IMG/VR virus record: IMGVR_UViG_2563366911_000004
Direction: 5' to 3' (one strand)
From: a virus
Lineage: Duplodnaviria > Heunggongvirae > Uroviricota > Caudoviricetes
DNA: 38,675 bases
Shown here: in pieces, positions 32,303-37,360 of the stretch
How the letters are laid out: the number at the start of each line of letters is the position of its first letter
Position numbering within the stretch: position 1 is the first letter of the stretch
Translations under genes and position numbers: made by a program
The notes under the pieces: model-generated
What the model saw: only the letters and a program-made list of their open reading frames with translations
Told to the model about the DNA's origin: nothing
Database searches by the model: none

Positions 32303-32710
32303 ATGGAAACAAAAAATTTAACTATCGGCGAACGCATTAGGTATCGTCGGAAAAACCTCAAACACACCCAAAGGTCTCTTGCTAAAGCCCTGAAAATCTC
32401 CCATGTGTCTGTATCACAATGGGAACGGGATGATAGTGAACCTACAGGGAAGAACCTTTTTGCCCTCAGCAAAGTATTGCAATGCTCACCAACATGGATT
32501 CTATTTGGCGATGAAGACAAGCAACCAACACCACCTGTTGAGAAGCCAGTTGCCTTATCCCCCAAAGAACTAGAGCTCCTTGAGCTGTTTAATGCACTGC
32601 CAGAATCAGAACAGGATACCCAGCTCGCCGAAATGCGAGCTCGAGTAAAAAACTTCAATAAACTCTTTGAAGAATTACTAAAAGCCCGTCAGCGGACAAA
32701 TAAAAGATAA
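32303..32710 (+). CDS. dicA: Prophage repressor DicA (XRE-family HTH)
   Basis: 135 aa, METKNLTIGERIRYRRKNLKHTQRSLAKALKISHVSVSQWERDDSEPTGKNLFALSKVLQCSPTWILFGDED.... Confidence 0.85.
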   Translation: METKNLTIGERIRYRRKNLKHTQRSLAKALKISHVSVSQWERDDSEPTGKNLFALSKVLQCSPTWILFGDEDKQPTPPVEKPVALSPKELELLELFNALPESEQDTQLAEMRARVKNFNKLFEELLKARQRTNKR

Positions 32711-32822: not shown

Positions 32823-33032
32823 GTGTTCTCAGCAAACAGTTCCGCTACCCCAGCGTTAAGGGGAAATGAGGTCAGCATGGATACTATCGATCTTGGCAAC
32901 AACGAATCTCTGGTGTACGGCGTGTTCCCCAACCAGGACGGCACGTTCACCGCGATGACGTATACCAAAAGCAAAACGTTTAAAACCGAAAATGGTGCCC
33001 GTCGCTGGCTGGAAAGAAACTCAGGTGAGTGA
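32823..33032 (+). CDS. ydfA: YdfA-like small protein
   Basis: Probable start ATG 32877 (MDTIDLGNNESLVYGVFPNQDGTFTAMTYTKSKTFKTENGARRWLERNSGE, 51 aa). Confidence 0.7.
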   Translation: MFSANSSATPALRGNEVSMDTIDLGNNESLVYGVFPNQDGTFTAMTYTKSKTFKTENGARRWLERNSGE

Positions 33033-33033
33033 T

Positions 33034-33609
33034 ATGGATTTCGACACAATCATGGAAAAGGCTTACGAAGAATACTTCGAAGGCCTTGCCGAAGGCGAAG
33101 AAGCTCTCAGCTTCAGTGAGTTTAAACAGGCACTCAGAATAAGAATGTGCTCTCACAATGACGCGGAGCACAAATATGAGAAGCAAAATCAGACCGCAGA
33201 AAATTTTGTTCTGGAACCCGGAGAAACGCTTTTCAAAATTCCCGTTACGTGCCCCATTTGCGGTTTTACATCAGAAGAACTTGACGACTCCTGTAACAAT
33301 CAGGAAACAACCAAGTATGTCGAAGATGATACCGAGTGCGCACGAAGAACGATTATATCCACGAGTCCAAACTCCAGGACCAATAAATCTCACTTTGAGA
33401 GGGTGATTAATCCACTCCCCCAAACCAATAAAAAAGATGCCGGAGGACAAAAAACCCAATGGAACAACGGGATATCTGTCAAAAAAAGACGTTCCATTAA
33501 AGACAAACAACGCAGCGCCAACAACTGTAAGCGCTTTATACCAGTAATCAATTTTCATGTTCTTAAGCGGATTTATTGGTGGTTGCGACATTGCTTAATG
33601 AATCCTTAA
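33034..33609 (+). CDS. Hypothetical protein with zinc-ribbon-like CPICG motif and basic C-terminus (ydfB/ydfC position)
   Basis: ATG 33034 with AGGTGA SD, start 1 nt after ydfA stop; MDFDTIMEKAYEEYFEGLAEGEEALSFSEFKQALRIRMCSHNDAEHKYEK...VTCPICGFTSEELDD...KKRRSIKDKQRSANNCKRF.... Confidence 0.55.
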   Translation: MDFDTIMEKAYEEYFEGLAEGEEALSFSEFKQALRIRMCSHNDAEHKYEKQNQTAENFVLEPGETLFKIPVTCPICGFTSEELDDSCNNQETTKYVEDDTECARRTIISTSPNSRTNKSHFERVINPLPQTNKKDAGGQKTQWNNGISVKKRRSIKDKQRSANNCKRFIPVINFHVLKRIYWWLRHCLMNP

Positions 33610-33867: not shown

Positions 33868-33925
33868 TTTTCTGGTGACGTTTGGCGGTATCAGTTTTAC
33901 TCCGTGACTGCTCTGCCGCCGTTTT
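33868..33925 (+). ncRNA. dicF: DicF small regulatory RNA
   Basis: TTTCTGGTGACGTTTGGCGGTATCAGTTTTACTCCGTGACTGCTCTGCCGCC followed by GTTTTT; matches my recollection of the 53-nt DicF RNA and lies in the expected position upstream of dicB. Confidence 0.6.
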
Positions 33926-34095: not shown

Positions 34096-34284
34096 ATGAA
34101 AACGTTATTACCAAACGTTAATACGTCTGAAGGTTGTTTTGAAATTGGTGTCACTATCAGTAACCCTGTATTTACTGAAGATGCCATTAACAAGAGAAAA
34201 CAAGAACGGGAGCTATTAAATAAAATATGCATTGTTTCAATGCTGGCTCGTTTACGTCTGATGCCAAAAGGATGTGCACAATGA
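34096..34284 (+). CDS. dicB: Cell-division inhibitor DicB
   Basis: 62 aa from ATG 34096 (GAGGA SD): MKTLLPNVNTSEGCFEIGVTISNPVFTEDAINKRKQERELLNKICIVSMLARLRLMPKGCAQ. Confidence 0.8.
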   Translation: MKTLLPNVNTSEGCFEIGVTISNPVFTEDAINKRKQERELLNKICIVSMLARLRLMPKGCAQ

Positions 34285-34472
34285 ATTCAGCATTTGCGCT
34301 TGTTCTGACAGTTTTTCTTGTTTCCGGAGAGCCAGTTGATATTGCAGTCAGTGTTCACAGGACAATGCAGGAGTGTATGACTGCAGCAACCGAACAGAAA
34401 ATTCCCGGTAACTGTTACCCGGTCGATAAAGTTATTCACCAGGATAATAACGAAATCCCGGCAGGTCTTTAA
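34281..34472 (+). CDS. ydfD: YdfD-like small protein (N-terminal TM segment)
   Basis: 63 aa from ATG 34281 (ATGA overlap with dicB stop): MNSAFALVLTVFLVSGEPVDIAVSVHRTMQECMTAATEQKIPGNCYPVDKVIHQDNNEIPAGL. Confidence 0.7.
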   Translation: MNSAFALVLTVFLVSGEPVDIAVSVHRTMQECMTAATEQKIPGNCYPVDKVIHQDNNEIPAGL

Positions 34473-34564: not shown

Positions 34565-37036
34565 ATGAGTAAAGTCTTTATTTGCGCCGCCATTCCGGAC
34601 GAACAGGCAATAAAGGAAGAAGGTGCCGTCGCTGTAGCCACTGCCATTGAAGCCGGTGATGAACGTCGCGCCCGCGCAAAATTTCACTGGCAATTCCTGG
34701 AACATTATCCGGCTGCTCAGGACTGCGCTTATAAATTTCTTGTTTGCGAGGATAAACCCGGTATACCCCGCCCTGCCCTCGATTCCTGGGATGCTGAATA
34801 TATGCAGGAAAACCGCTGGGATGAGGCGTCTGCTTCCTTTGTCCCGGTCGAGACTGAATCCGATCCGATGAACGTCACTTTTGACAACCTAGCCCCTGAA
34901 GTACAGAACGCTGTCATGGTTAAGTTCGACACATGTGAAAACATCACTGTTGATATGGTGATTAGCGCACAGGAATTGTTGCAGGAAGACATGGCAACAT
35001 TCGACGGCCATATCGTTGAAGCGTTGATGAAAATGCCAGAAGTTAACGCTATGTATCCGGAGCTTAAGCTGCATGCCATCGGGTGGGTTAAGCATAAATG
35101 TAAGCCTGGTGCCAAATGGCCCGAAATTCAGGCAGAGATGCGCATCTGGAAAAAACGTCGCGAAGGTGAACGCAAGGAAGCCGGAAAATACACGTCTGTT
35201 GTTGATCTCGCCCGCGCCAGAGCCAATCAACAGCACACTGAAAATTCAACAGGAAAAATCAACCCGGTCATTGCTGCCATTCATCGCGAATACAAGCAGA
35301 CATGGAAAACACTGGATGACGAACTGGCCTACGCTCTCTGGCCTGGTGATGTGGATGCCGGAAACATTGACGGCAGCATCCATCGCTGGGCAAAAAATGA
35401 AGTTATCGACAACGACCGCGAAGACTGGAAGCGTATCTCGGCATCAATGCGCAAACAGCCTGATGCCCTTCGCTACGACCGCCAGACTATTTTTGGCCTT
35501 GTCCGTGAACGTCCGATCGACATTCACAAAGACCCTGTGGCACTGAACAAATACATTACTGAATACCTGACTACAAAGGGCGTGTTTGAAGATGAAGGAA
35601 CAAATCAGAGCGCAACTGATACTCTCTCGTCGCCAGTACCAGAAACTGATGCAGTGGAAACGGCAATTCCAGACAACGAAAAAACCGAATGCAAAGTGGA
35701 AGTCGAACCATCTGTAGAACGTGAGGGGCCGTTCTACTTCCTCTTCACCGACAAGGATGGCGAAAAATACGGTCGCGCAAATAAACTTTCTGGTCTGGAT
35801 AAGGCGCTGTCTGCTGGGGCTACTGAAATCACGAAAGAAGAATATTTCGCCCGCAAAAACGGTACATACTCAGGTTCACAACAAAATACTGGTGCATCTG
35901 ACACGACCGCACAACCAGGGTCAGTAAAAGTTACCGCTGACGAAGTAAACAAAATTATGCAGGCAGCCAATATCAGCCAGCCTGACGCCGATGAACTGCT
36001 TGCAGTATCACGTGGTGAATTTGTTGAAGGGATTAGCGACCCGAATGATCCGAAATGGATTAAGGGGATCCAGACCCGCGATTCTGTGAACCAGAACCAG
36101 CAAGAAACGGAACAGAACGACCAGAAAGCGGAACAAAACAGCCCAAATACGCAACAAAACGAGCCAGAAACGAAACAACCTGAACCAGTAGTGCAACAGG
36201 AACCGGAAAAGATCTGCACCGCCTGCGGTCAGAGCGGTGGCGGCAACTGCCCTGATTGTGGTGCGGTGATGGGTGACGCAACATACCAGGAAATATTCGA
36301 TGGAGAGAATCAGCCTGAAGTTCAGGAAAATGATCCGGAGGAAATGGAAGGCACTGCGCATCAGCACAAGGAGAACACTGGCGGCAATCAGCATCATGCC
36401 AGCGATAGTGAAACTGGCGAGGCGTCAGATCCCTTAATTAAGGCAAACGGTCATCATAATCTCACATCCACCAGCAGAGCGGGGATTCATCTGATGATCG
36501 ACCTTGAAACCATGGGAAAAAATCCCGATGCCCCGATTATCTCAATAGGTGCAATATTTTTCGATCCGCAAACCGGAGATATGGGACCGGAATTTAGTAA
36601 GACTATCGATCTGGAAACTGCTGGCGGAGTCATTGATCGGGACACCATTAAATGGTGGCTTAAACAATCACGCGAAGCGCAATCTGCCATTATGACCGAT
36701 GAAATCCCGTTAGATGATGCACTGTTACAATTGCGGGAATTTATCGACGAAAACTCCGGTGAATTTTTTGTTCATGTCTGGGGAAATGGAGCCAACTTCG
36801 ACAACACGATTTTGCGCCGTTCATACGAACGGCAGGGGATCCCCTGCCCGTGGCGTTACTACAACGATCGCGATGTACGCACAATCGTTGAGCTGGGGAA
36901 AGCCATAGACTTCGATGCCAGAACGGCTATTCCATTCGAAGGTGAGCGCCATAATGCACTTGATGACGCCCGTTACCAGGCAAAATACGTTTCAGCTATC
37001 TGGCAAAAACTGATCCCGAGTCAGGCTGATTCTTAA
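34565..37036 (+). CDS. Large multidomain early protein (823 aa; YdfE-like by synteny) with central low-complexity Q/E/N-rich linker, a CxxC-x7-CxxC zinc ribbon and a C-terminal DnaQ-like (DEDDh) 3'-5' exonuclease domain
   Basis: C-terminal ~190 aa: ...HLMIDLETMGKNPDAPIISIGAIFFD...FFVHVWGNGANFDNTIL...RHNALDDARYQAKY... (Exo I DxE, Exo II NxxxFD, Exo III H-x4-D pattern). Zinc ribbon CTACGQSGGGNCPDCG. Located between ydfD and xis/int. Confidence 0.75.
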   Translation: MSKVFICAAIPDEQAIKEEGAVAVATAIEAGDERRARAKFHWQFLEHYPAAQDCAYKFLVCEDKPGIPRPALDSWDAEYMQENRWDEASASFVPVETESDPMNVTFDNLAPEVQNAVMVKFDTCENITVDMVISAQELLQEDMATFDGHIVEALMKMPEVNAMYPELKLHAIGWVKHKCKPGAKWPEIQAEMRIWKKRREGERKEAGKYTSVVDLARARANQQHTENSTGKINPVIAAIHREYKQTWKTLDDELAYALWPGDVDAGNIDGSIHRWAKNEVIDNDREDWKRISASMRKQPDALRYDRQTIFGLVRERPIDIHKDPVALNKYITEYLTTKGVFEDEGTNQSATDTLSSPVPETDAVETAIPDNEKTECKVEVEPSVEREGPFYFLFTDKDGEKYGRANKLSGLDKALSAGATEITKEEYFARKNGTYSGSQQNTGASDTTAQPGSVKVTADEVNKIMQAANISQPDADELLAVSRGEFVEGISDPNDPKWIKGIQTRDSVNQNQQETEQNDQKAEQNSPNTQQNEPETKQPEPVVQQEPEKICTACGQSGGGNCPDCGAVMGDATYQEIFDGENQPEVQENDPEEMEGTAHQHKENTGGNQHHASDSETGEASDPLIKANGHHNLTSTSRAGIHLMIDLETMGKNPDAPIISIGAIFFDPQTGDMGPEFSKTIDLETAGGVIDRDTIKWWLKQSREAQSAIMTDEIPLDDALLQLREFIDENSGEFFVHVWGNGANFDNTILRRSYERQGIPCPWRYYNDRDVRTIVELGKAIDFDARTAIPFEGERHNALDDARYQAKYVSAIWQKLIPSQADS

Positions 37037-37108
37037 TGTTCAACTGTCGCCGGTTGTGACTGGTATTCTGCAACCGGCGCTCGTCTGATGTAAGAGATAA
37101 AGAAATCG

Positions 37109-37360
37109 ATGAGCGAAGTAATCATGATTGTCTCTCCCGGCAAATGGGTATCCGAAGAGCAGTTAATTGCGCTGAAAGGAATAAAAAAAGGTACGTTAAA
37201 AAAGGCCCGGGAAAAATCGTTTATGGAAGGAAGGGAATATAAGCATGTCGCTCATGACGGTATGCCATGGGATAACAGTCCATGCTTTTACAACCTGGAA
37301 GAAATTGATCGCTGGATTGAGCGCCAGGCATCAGCAAGACCAAGACGTCATCTTACTTGA
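37109..37360 (+). CDS. Excisionase-like protein
   Basis: 83 aa basic protein immediately upstream of integrase; assignment by position and size. Confidence 0.5.
   Translation: MSEVIMIVSPGKWVSEEQLIALKGIKKGTLKKAREKSFMEGREYKHVAHDGMPWDNSPCFYNLEEIDRWIERQASARPRRHLT

Follow-up and report, generated by a model that had tools for sequence, protein, structure and literature searches.

In the Rac prophage, recE is a large gene that lies late in the early-left operon, 5' of xis-int and adjacent to recT. Its product ends in a PD-(D/E)XK 5'-3' nuclease domain, and the N-terminal region of RecE, dispensable for nuclease activity, enhances linear-linear recombination (PMC11611040). A different type of exonuclease is found in T4 DexA (exonuclease A; PDB 8KEL/8KEN), a 3'-5' DNA exonuclease of 227 residues, and in Rv2179c of Mycobacterium tuberculosis, a standalone bacterial exoribonuclease after which the Pfam family PF16473 is named. 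DEDDh enzymes work by an established two-metal mechanism, and in DexA the oligomeric state governs which substrate is chosen. E. coli genomes also encode a DEDDh exonuclease of the DexA family, EcD (“HREX”; HAK9828821.1), which is reported to digest 5hmC/T4 DNA and to protect E. coli from T4 (PMC12153337). It is the sole E. coli homologue with experimental data. Its features include the loss of the Asp involved in DexA tetramerisation (D90, which is Ala in EcD) and the conservation of W152 and D169, linked to 5hmC recognition (PMC12153337).

Here we consider a gene that joins a RecE-like scaffold to a predicted DexA-type exonuclease. It lies in a window of 38,675 nucleotides, which is the whole stretch of Caudoviricetes DNA analysed (IMG/VR record IMGVR_UViG_2563366911_000004). 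The main features are collected in the table.

Features of the exonuclease gene and its neighbours (window coordinates; aa positions refer to the 823-aa protein)
Feature	Position	Strand	Basis or remarks
DicF sRNA	33870-33921	+	Rfam DicF, 72.5 bits
dicB	about 34096-34284	+	Pfam DicB
ydfD/DUF1482	about 34281-34472	+	Pfam DUF1482
Intact YdfE-type “exonuclease”, complete CDS	34565..37036	+	ATG start, 823 aa + stop (ORF list)
Head module, aa 1-206 (Pfam YdfE_N)	34565..35182	+	alpha/beta aa 1-100, helical aa 105-206
Middle helical domain, aa 245-340, RecE middle-region homologue	35297..35584	+	pLDDT ~88, RecE-model match
Small beta/alpha domain, aa 385-435 (Pfam YdfE_C)	35717..35869	+	motif GPFYF..GRANK..EI..EY..RK, pLDDT 82-90
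Linker module common with Rac-type RecE, aa 439-624	35879..36436	+	60% aa identity
CxxC-x7-CxxC knuckle, aa 551-565, CTACGQSGGGNCPDC	36215..36259	+	regex match
Predicted DEDDh 3'-5' exonuclease domain (Rv2179c/DexA-like), aa 642-813	36488..37003	+	Pfam PF16473
Excisionase	37109-37360	+	PHROG 539; ORF list
Tyrosine integrase	37380 to window end (38675)	+	ORF list; mEp460 annotation

The locus and its place among prophages

The 823-aa reading frame given in a preliminary description of this DNA is reproduced exactly by the ORF list. Its ATG is preceded by GAGG at 9-10 nt, and the CDS is 100% identical at the nucleotide level to a RefSeq “exonuclease” CDS of E. coli strain 1190 and 99.8% identical to phage mEp460_ev081. 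The protein matches PHROG 2082 across its full length. A simple promoter scan gave no candidate directly 5' of the gene. At its other end, a weak hairpin (z=-1.8) without a U-tract comes immediately 3' of the stop codon.

The order of the genes is dicF-dicB-ydfD-exonuclease gene-xis-int, and it is the same in the Qin prophage of K-12 (as far as IS2) and in the other prophages examined. Rfam, Pfam, PHROG 539 and the ORF list thus bear out the synteny first proposed, after dicB-ydfD and before xis-int, and the exonuclease gene is the final gene of the early-left operon ahead of xis-int. It had also been described as the full-length form of a gene truncated in K-12 Qin, ydfE, and this identification was correct: nt 1-767 of the gene have a counterpart in K-12 (94.9% identity), again next to dicB-ydfD, before IS2 intervenes, and the corresponding Pfam families bear the YdfE name. 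The K-12 pseudogene keeps only the ~255 codons (the YdfE_N head) that precede the IS2 insertion, so that everything from the RecE-like middle domain onward (YdfE_C, linker and exonuclease) is missing from it.

The gene thus occupies a slot equivalent to that of recE in Rac. However, xis and int follow it directly, with no recT, bet or erf between the gene and xis-int in the window, whereas recE and recT are adjacent in Rac. No annealase gene was seen beside the DEDDh versions, either in the window or at the other loci examined, in contrast to canonical exonuclease-annealase pairs, where it is present.

A RecE-like scaffold and linker

The N-terminal ~450 aa were initially left unassigned, which no longer holds: precomputed matches to PF27430 (YdfE_N) and PF27432 (YdfE_C) are carried by proteins 97-100% identical to this one over aa 1-460, and by this comparison the window protein appears to match both YdfE family models. 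The best-conserved columns of a 99-sequence alignment are those of the YdfE_C domain. Structure prediction, which covered the N-terminal 640 aa and one relative, gave no scaffold fold match pointing to DNA or partner binding, and no informative structural relative was found for the N-terminal fold.

In its middle part, the protein is related to RecE. Positions 270-603 of the NCBIfam RecE model align with aa 245-626, the middle helical domain is 27% identical to RecE residues 295-368 (BLASTP), and in local phmmer searches N2 and RecE_mid matches fall on one stretch in many relatives. The heads of the two proteins fall into different Pfam families: RecE has Exonuc_VIII (PF06630), whereas the window protein has YdfE_N and no Pfam match to PF06630. 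When YdfE_N and RecE_N were compared by hhalign, using alignments without shared sequences, the match extended collinearly across 181 columns, with a probability of 10% and E=0.003. The YdfE_C domain is absent from RecE.

Following these domains comes a 186-aa linker module, which is shared with Rac-type RecE (aa 439-624 against RecE aa 431-614) and consists of a GISDPNDPKW motif, a Q/E/N-rich stretch, the knuckle and an acidic tail. Part of the similarity is visible in the DNA, since nt 1453-1868 of the gene are 83% identical to recE of Rac-SA53. The module is predicted to be disordered, with pLDDT mostly below 50. The preliminary description had rightly pointed to the repetitive Q/E/N-rich segment (aa 501-547, made up for 82-90% of Q/E/N/D/P/S/T/K/G) and to the CxxC-x7-CxxC motif. 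Its zinc ribbon stands as a motif of this protein but not as a feature of the family, since among 59 long cluster representatives just one has the knuckle. It is kept in E. coli alleles and in RecE, and the other 58 long representatives are without it. The surrounding region has pLDDT values of 46-68 within the disordered linker, and the Pfam DZR match is insignificant (E=0.13). The zinc ribbon was thus dropped as a functional hallmark, being confined to E. coli alleles and RecE. In other relatives, the YdfE-type scaffold bears either the RecE 5'-3' PD-(D/E)XK nuclease or a Rad52-fold domain instead.

The C-terminal DEDDh domain

A match to the Rv2179c-like family PF16473 covers aa 642-813 and, in the model, positions 2-177 of 177. 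Its score of 224.5 bits lies far above the cutoff of 27 (E=9.8e-67), and chance similarity is excluded by a wide margin as the source of this predicted exonuclease assignment. The general RNase_T model PF00929 stays slightly under threshold (22.4 versus 24). The Exo motifs lie at 646-649 (DLET), 741-746 (NGANFD) and 796-801 (HNALDD, H796-x4-D801), so that the predicted catalytic set, D646, E648, D746, H796 and D801, is complete. An extra DLET at 682-685 is incidental. Each of the five residues is retained in 60-63 of 63 distinct homologous domains, sampled at 50-100% identity. A degenerate or inactive domain was ruled out on the basis of this conservation and of the intact gene in thousands of genomes. 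That the domain is autonomous is shown by a standalone 189-aa homologue (58% identity).

When the PDB was searched with the family profile, DexA (8KEL/8KEN) was the only match at E<=0.01 (E=1.3e-15). From this match to a solved structure we infer an RNase H-like DEDD fold. DexA is thus the nearest solved relative of the catalytic domain, at ~28% identity over DexA residues 4-162 of 227, with the Exo I IDxETMG, “WW..QS.EA” and “NxRD(V/I)RT” segments in common, but in the temperate-phage protein the domain forms the C-terminus of 823 aa. Rv2179c shares the Pfam family but is a standalone enzyme, and it appears more distant than DexA, since the profile matched no Rv2179c structure at that threshold. 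The preliminary description had proposed a C-terminal DEDDh exonuclease and named two observations that would speak against it, the absence of a DEDDh fold by profile or structure comparison and unconserved catalytic residues. Neither was encountered: the Pfam and PDB profile searches and the conservation among homologues all point to the domain as described.

Candidate functions

The account to which we lean, though only by a modest degree, is that of a scaffold-tethered 3'-5' DNA-end exonuclease belonging to the early-left operon of DicB-type lambdoid prophages. The early-left promoter would transcribe the gene along with dicF, dicB and ydfD, ahead of xis-int. Residues 1-435 would form a scaffold made of the YdfE_N head, the RecE-like middle helical domain and the small YdfE_C, to which a long, disordered, acidic Q/E/N-rich linker with its lineage-specific 4-Cys knuckle would tether an autonomous DEDDh domain of the DexA/Rv2179c type. 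This domain would use the two-metal mechanism to strip nucleotides from 3'-OH ends, and its physiological substrate may be DNA ends or 3' tails arising after prophage derepression, with the scaffold delivering the catalytic module to DNA ends or to a host factor. The proposed module, its scaffold and the operon setting would therefore make the protein an opposite-polarity, annealase-less counterpart of RecE. Recombination, host takeover and counter-defence had all been suggested for it; the sequence comparisons narrow these suggestions toward probable DNA-end action in a RecE-like setting. A 3'-5' polarity leaves 5' overhangs, on which annealase and RecA pathways do not usually act. Both these overhangs and the absence of an annealase gene from the examined loci count against the DNA-end reading, as do the exoribonuclease name of the Pfam family and the lack of a scaffold fold match that would indicate binding of DNA or a partner.

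That the protein is simply RecE, a 5'-3' resection partner of a RecT-type annealase, is suggested by the “exodeoxyribonuclease VIII” label in several records and by partial matches to the NCBIfam model for RecE and to PHROGs that include RecE, but it is scarcely conceivable. The score against the equivalog NF007259 is 273.4 bits for a cutoff of 1269 and involves model positions 270-603 of 877 only. The protein has no Pfam match to PF06630 or to DUF3799/PDDEXK, both of which RecE has, and local phmmer found no match between the RecE nuclease domain and P0121, a representative 97% identical to the window protein. Moreover, recT is absent downstream, and the predicted catalytic domain is of another superfamily, whose polarity is the opposite. 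RecE identity is refuted by the sub-cutoff score and by the missing PD-(D/E)XK domain and recT neighbour.

An exclusion nuclease of the HREX type is a more serious competitor, although an unlikely one. It would selectively digest the 5hmC DNA of T-even phages, protecting the host or the lytic cycle of the prophage from superinfection. The window domain belongs to the same DexA-like family as EcD, with its catalytic residues intact, and the genera in which DexA homologues occur most often are Escherichia, Citrobacter and Klebsiella (PMC12153337). A phage homologue listed in that study, VUF53858.1, has a number near those of mEp460 (VUF53340-53772), a proximity of numbers alone. The extreme prevalence of the gene in E. 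coli (3534 of 5426 complete genomes, up to 10 places per genome) would fit a benefit to the host. However, two things speak against constitutive expression: the gene sits in the repressed early-left operon, and no promoter-like site lies nearby. EcD is short and standalone and starts at its Exo I motif with MIDTET, whereas this protein has a 640-aa N-terminal extension; no “IDTET” start occurs in the protein sets examined, and the published EcD primers gave only a chance match to genome contigs, in an Acetatifactor MAG. The diagnostic residues also disagree, judging from the HMMER alignment only: DexA D90 is retained as D718, W152 corresponds to Tyr766, and D169 falls outside the aligned region. 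This explanation also leaves the RecE-type scaffold unaccounted for.

Still less probable is an RNA or oligonucleotide exonuclease, whose task in host takeover or counter-defence would be to shorten RNA at its 3' ends or to break down oligonucleotide signals, short or cyclic. An RNA substrate keeps some plausibility because the Pfam family takes its name from an exoribonuclease and is described as a 3'-5' exoribonuclease domain, a naming often followed in RefSeq. The PADLOC match is no more than generic, to DEDDh domains associated with CRISPR (E=1.4e-5), and the sRNA DicF lies in the same operon. Yet the sole PDB match at E<=0.01 is a DNA enzyme, both alternative modules on the scaffold are DNA-recombination effectors, and nothing in the gene neighbourhood hints at RNA or nucleotide signalling.

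A broader version of the DNA-end reading is more tentative than that reading itself, and we consider it rather doubtful. The YdfE/RecE N-terminal region may serve enterobacterial lambdoid phages in general as a docking platform, with DNA-end effectors exchanged by recombination in the shared linker. These would be a 5'-3' PD-(D/E)XK nuclease, a DexA-type 3'-5' nuclease, a Rad52-fold annealase and a fourth tail, the DEDDh version serving an annealase-independent end-processing pathway.

Occurrence and implications

Few prophage genes are as common in E. coli as the exonuclease gene: at a coverage of at least 80% it is present in about two thirds of the complete genomes, frequently as more than one copy, with five or six copies in O157-type strains. 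RefSeq often names the protein “3'-5' exoribonuclease” and elsewhere “exonuclease”, while several phage records call it “exodeoxyribonuclease VIII”, a label that, from the domain content, is wrong. The preliminary description had overlooked this ubiquity and existing annotation, as well as the linker and knuckle common with RecE and the anti-T4 DexA homologue. Our literature search found no functional data on ydfE or on Rv2179c-family proteins of phages, and no activity, substrate or phenotype reported for the YdfE protein. What is already known is a very common, annotated prophage gene; what is new is its modular context, a RecE-like scaffold joined to a DexA-type exonuclease.

In prophages of Klebsiella, Salmonella, Enterobacter and Citrobacter, the name “exodeoxyribonuclease VIII” is in many cases attached to proteins without a recognisable nuclease domain. 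If the HREX-type explanation were true, a latent nuclease directed at T-even phages would be present in most E. coli. If the docking platform were real, comparing its four versions would give a handle on the long-unexplained N-terminus of RecE. The view of a RecE scaffold bearing a nuclease of opposite polarity leads to experiments on the role of the large non-catalytic part of RecE, for which the Rad52-fold domain on the same scaffold in sibling proteins is also relevant, and on why lambdoid phages without an annealase would keep a tethered 3'-5' exonuclease.

The exonuclease gene and its catalytic domain

The 823-codon gene starts at an ATG with a GAGG 9-10 nt 5' of it. The six-frame ORF list and a regex pass over the translation, from which the motif positions in the table are taken, agree with the preliminary description, including its Q/E/N-rich segment: Q/E/N/D/P/S/T/K/G make up 82-90% of aa 501-547. 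The C-terminal DEDDh exonuclease proposed there is borne out by a Pfam match to PF16473 (Rv2179c-like 3'-5' exoribonuclease domain; aa 642-813, model 2-177 of 177, 224.5 bits, E=9.8e-67). It also stands because D646, E648, D746, H796 and D801 are each retained in 60-63 of 63 distinct homologous domains, 50-100% identical, drawn from all proteins collected.

Among all solved structures, compared by sequence, the 823-aa protein matches only 8KEL/8KEN, as does a 13-sequence family profile (E=1.3e-15). The S87A/D90A alignment differences and PMC12153337 identify these as T4 DexA (exonuclease A) and its dimeric mutant. By tblastn, the DEDDh domain matches 1631 of 50,697 phage records, many of the matches being standalone genes of about 190 aa. 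T4-like dexA genes, which encode a 3'-5' DNA exonuclease, are about 28% identical to it. In Salmonella phage 118970_sal3, a 58% identical standalone homologue of 189 aa starts two residues ahead of LMIDLETMG and lies immediately 5' of xis-int. Because such standalone homologues occur, the domain is, from these comparisons, an autonomous, mobile module.

Features of the window and of the 823-aa protein
Feature	Position	Strand	Basis or remark
823-aa gene	34565..37036	+	one long ORF, six-frame ORF list
DLET	aa 646-649		regex on translation
NGANFD	aa 741-746		regex on translation
HNALDD (H796-x4-D801)	aa 796-801		regex on translation
CTACGQSGGGNCPDC (CxxC-x7-CxxC knuckle)	aa 551-565		regex on translation
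Alpha/beta domain, confident	aa 1-100		predicted model
Helical domain, confident	aa 105-206		predicted model
Helical domain, confident	aa 245-340		predicted model
Two beta-hairpins + helices, confident	aa 388-432		predicted model
HNH endonuclease, 362 aa	24344-25432	-	PHROG 96, E=1e-171
FRG-domain protein, 444 aa	27165-28499	+	PADLOC candidate defence family PDC-S15, E=7e-99
DDE transposase, 402 aa	28551-29759	-	PF01609
DicA/cI-type repressor ORF	32303-32710	+	early-left operon; small ORFs follow
69-aa ORF	32823-33032		PHROG 751, function unknown
205-aa ORF	32992-33609	+	PHROG 35040 end to end, function unknown
DicF sRNA, full-length	33870-33921	+	Rfam RF00039, 72.5 bits; upstream of dicB, as in K-12 Qin
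DicB, then DUF1482/YdfD	between DicF and 823-aa gene	+	
Excisionase, then integrase	3' of 823-aa gene	+	PHROG 539 (excisionase); ORF list (integrase)
Hairpin GCCGGTTG...CAACCGGC	37049-37078	+	MFE -19.7 kcal/mol, z -1.8

A RecE-related scaffold with varying ends

Identity as RecE is refuted. The NCBIfam RecE equivalog (model positions 270-603) aligns to aa 245-626 and scores 273 bits where its cutoff is 1269. The protein shows no Pfam match to the N-terminal PF06630 of RecE and lacks its C-terminal PD-(D/E)XK/DUF3799 and its neighbouring recT. In the literature, the RecE N-terminus has no assigned function; nuclease activity does not need it, and it enhances linear-linear recombination (PMC11611040). 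Two regions align by BLASTP with the 1048-aa RecE of phage Rac-SA53, aa 262-336 at 27% identity and aa 439-624 at 60%. Within the second lie the GISDPNDPKW motif, the Q/E-rich stretch, the CxxC-x7-CxxC knuckle and an acidic tail; DNA identity to recE is 83% at gene nt 1453-1868 (window 36017-36432, + strand). Since the similarity runs through the linker and stops about 15 residues ahead of the DEDDh domain, the low-complexity linker and its zinc knuckle belong to a mosaic segment common to RecE, joining different nuclease cassettes, and the 83% patch, whose 3' limit is just short of the nuclease domain, is likely a recombination joint for their exchange. The zinc ribbon of the preliminary description is present, but it does not mark the family: the knuckle occurs in only 1 of 59 long cluster representatives, and it is modelled within the disordered linker (pLDDT 46-68).

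In an exhaustive HMMER search of 1.84 billion cluster representatives, only 191 clusters match aa 1-460 (E<=0.001), and by this measure the scaffold family is narrow, its members seen here being in Enterobacterales. The structure model (aa 1-640, 99-sequence alignment) predicts disorder at aa 207-244, 345-384, 438-457, 501-547 and 571-640 around four confident domains, the last bearing the nearly invariant motif GPFYF..GRANK..EI..EY..RK. Mapping modules in the 59 representatives (>=450 aa; local phmmer, leftover tails clustered) reveals a combinatorial architecture, with a YdfE_N or RecE_N head, a common middle domain, and a DEDDh (11), RecE-type PD-(D/E)XK (12), third conserved (at least 18) or fourth tail. 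YdfE_N heads occur with the RecE nuclease (P0131, P0176, P0214, P0240) and RecE_N heads with DEDDh (P0139, P0232, P0237 and others). The fourth tail (P0126, P0216, P0230, P0250, P0255, P0269) is the C-terminal part of PHROG 26058, with motifs '..LSGRT..M..EEAEGVV.CTGHL..' and 'QQQLT.AAL.G.CANP'; it has no Pfam match and no recognisable catalytic motif. Relatives labelled 'exodeoxyribonuclease VIII' take up the same genomic slot, preceded by KilR and GamL.

Prophage setting, ydfE and occurrence

The window is a lambdoid prophage with Q antiterminator, HNH endonuclease, O-like, cII-like and Ren-like genes on the minus strand; the HNH gene is directly upstream of Q. The FRG-domain and transposase genes, side by side between the replication and Q regions, look like an insertion of IS-associated cargo or defence genes. 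The proposed synteny (after dicB-ydfD, before xis-int) is seen here and recurs in E. coli DEF2, E. coli 675SK2 and Citrobacter, while a Salmonella relative has kilR-gene-xis-int; in none of these loci, the window included, does recT, bet or erf adjoin the DEDDh gene. A simple promoter scan detects nothing immediately 5' of the gene, so the simplest reading is that it belongs to the repressor-controlled early-left transcript. The hairpin 13 nt past the gene's stop codon, before xis, lacks a U-tract and has a z of only -1.8, and is therefore not an obvious terminator. The coding assignment of the 205-aa ORF, which overlaps the 69-aa ORF, is uncertain; in mEp460 just two shorter ORFs are annotated there.

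In K-12 (NEB 5-alpha record), within the same dicA-ydfABC-dicB-ydfD context, the match runs only as far as nt 767, the point at which an IS2 transposase pseudogene starts. This remnant is ydfE of Qin, consistent with the Pfam names YdfE_N and YdfE_C of the N-terminal families; the earlier reading of a full-length ydfE, like the description of the protein itself, is judged right. By Megablast (>=80% coverage), 3534 of 5426 complete E. coli genomes carry the gene, with a median of 2 places per genome and at most 10; some E. coli alleles have only the 3' 45% (nt 1357-2472) in common and differ in the rest of the gene. Its labels in E. coli are 'exonuclease', '3'-5' exonuclease' or '3'-5' exoribonuclease domain-containing protein', whereas several phage records have 'exodeoxyribonuclease VIII'. 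The protein matches PHROG 2082 'exonuclease' end to end, and annotations of this CDS exist for phage mEp460_ev081, at 99.8% nt identity, and for E. coli strain 1190, at 100%. Being ubiquitous and annotated, the feature itself is not new. Full-text searches on ydfE and on phage proteins of the Rv2179c family find no functional study, so the protein is catalogued but uncharacterised.

Substrate and proposed role

By sequence, the protein's DEDDh active site is complete and conserved, DexA is the nearest solved relative, and the scaffold and slot are of RecE type, with no annealase partner. That the protein acts on RNA or oligonucleotides, as Rv2179c does, is improbable; the DEDDh form is placed on DNA ends mainly because the same scaffold is joined to effectors of two kinds that are established in DNA recombination. 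An exclusion nuclease of the HREX type is the main rival, in that EcD, a DexA homologue from E. coli, protects against T4 and digests 5hmC DNA (PMC12153337). However, this reading is unlikely: the gene has a repressed operon position, the Asp equivalent to DexA D90, absent from EcD, is retained as D718 in the alignment, DexA W152 is replaced by Tyr766, and EcD, known here from its published description, is a short standalone protein.

In the literature searched, neither a RecE-family scaffold carrying a swapped nuclease of apparently opposite polarity, nor its siblings with a putative Rad52-fold annealase, nor a DEDDh form lacking an annealase partner is described. We lean, with some reserve, toward a protein that would act on DNA 3' ends after prophage derepression, its DEDDh domain performing two-metal 3'-5' hydrolysis and its scaffold providing the targeting.
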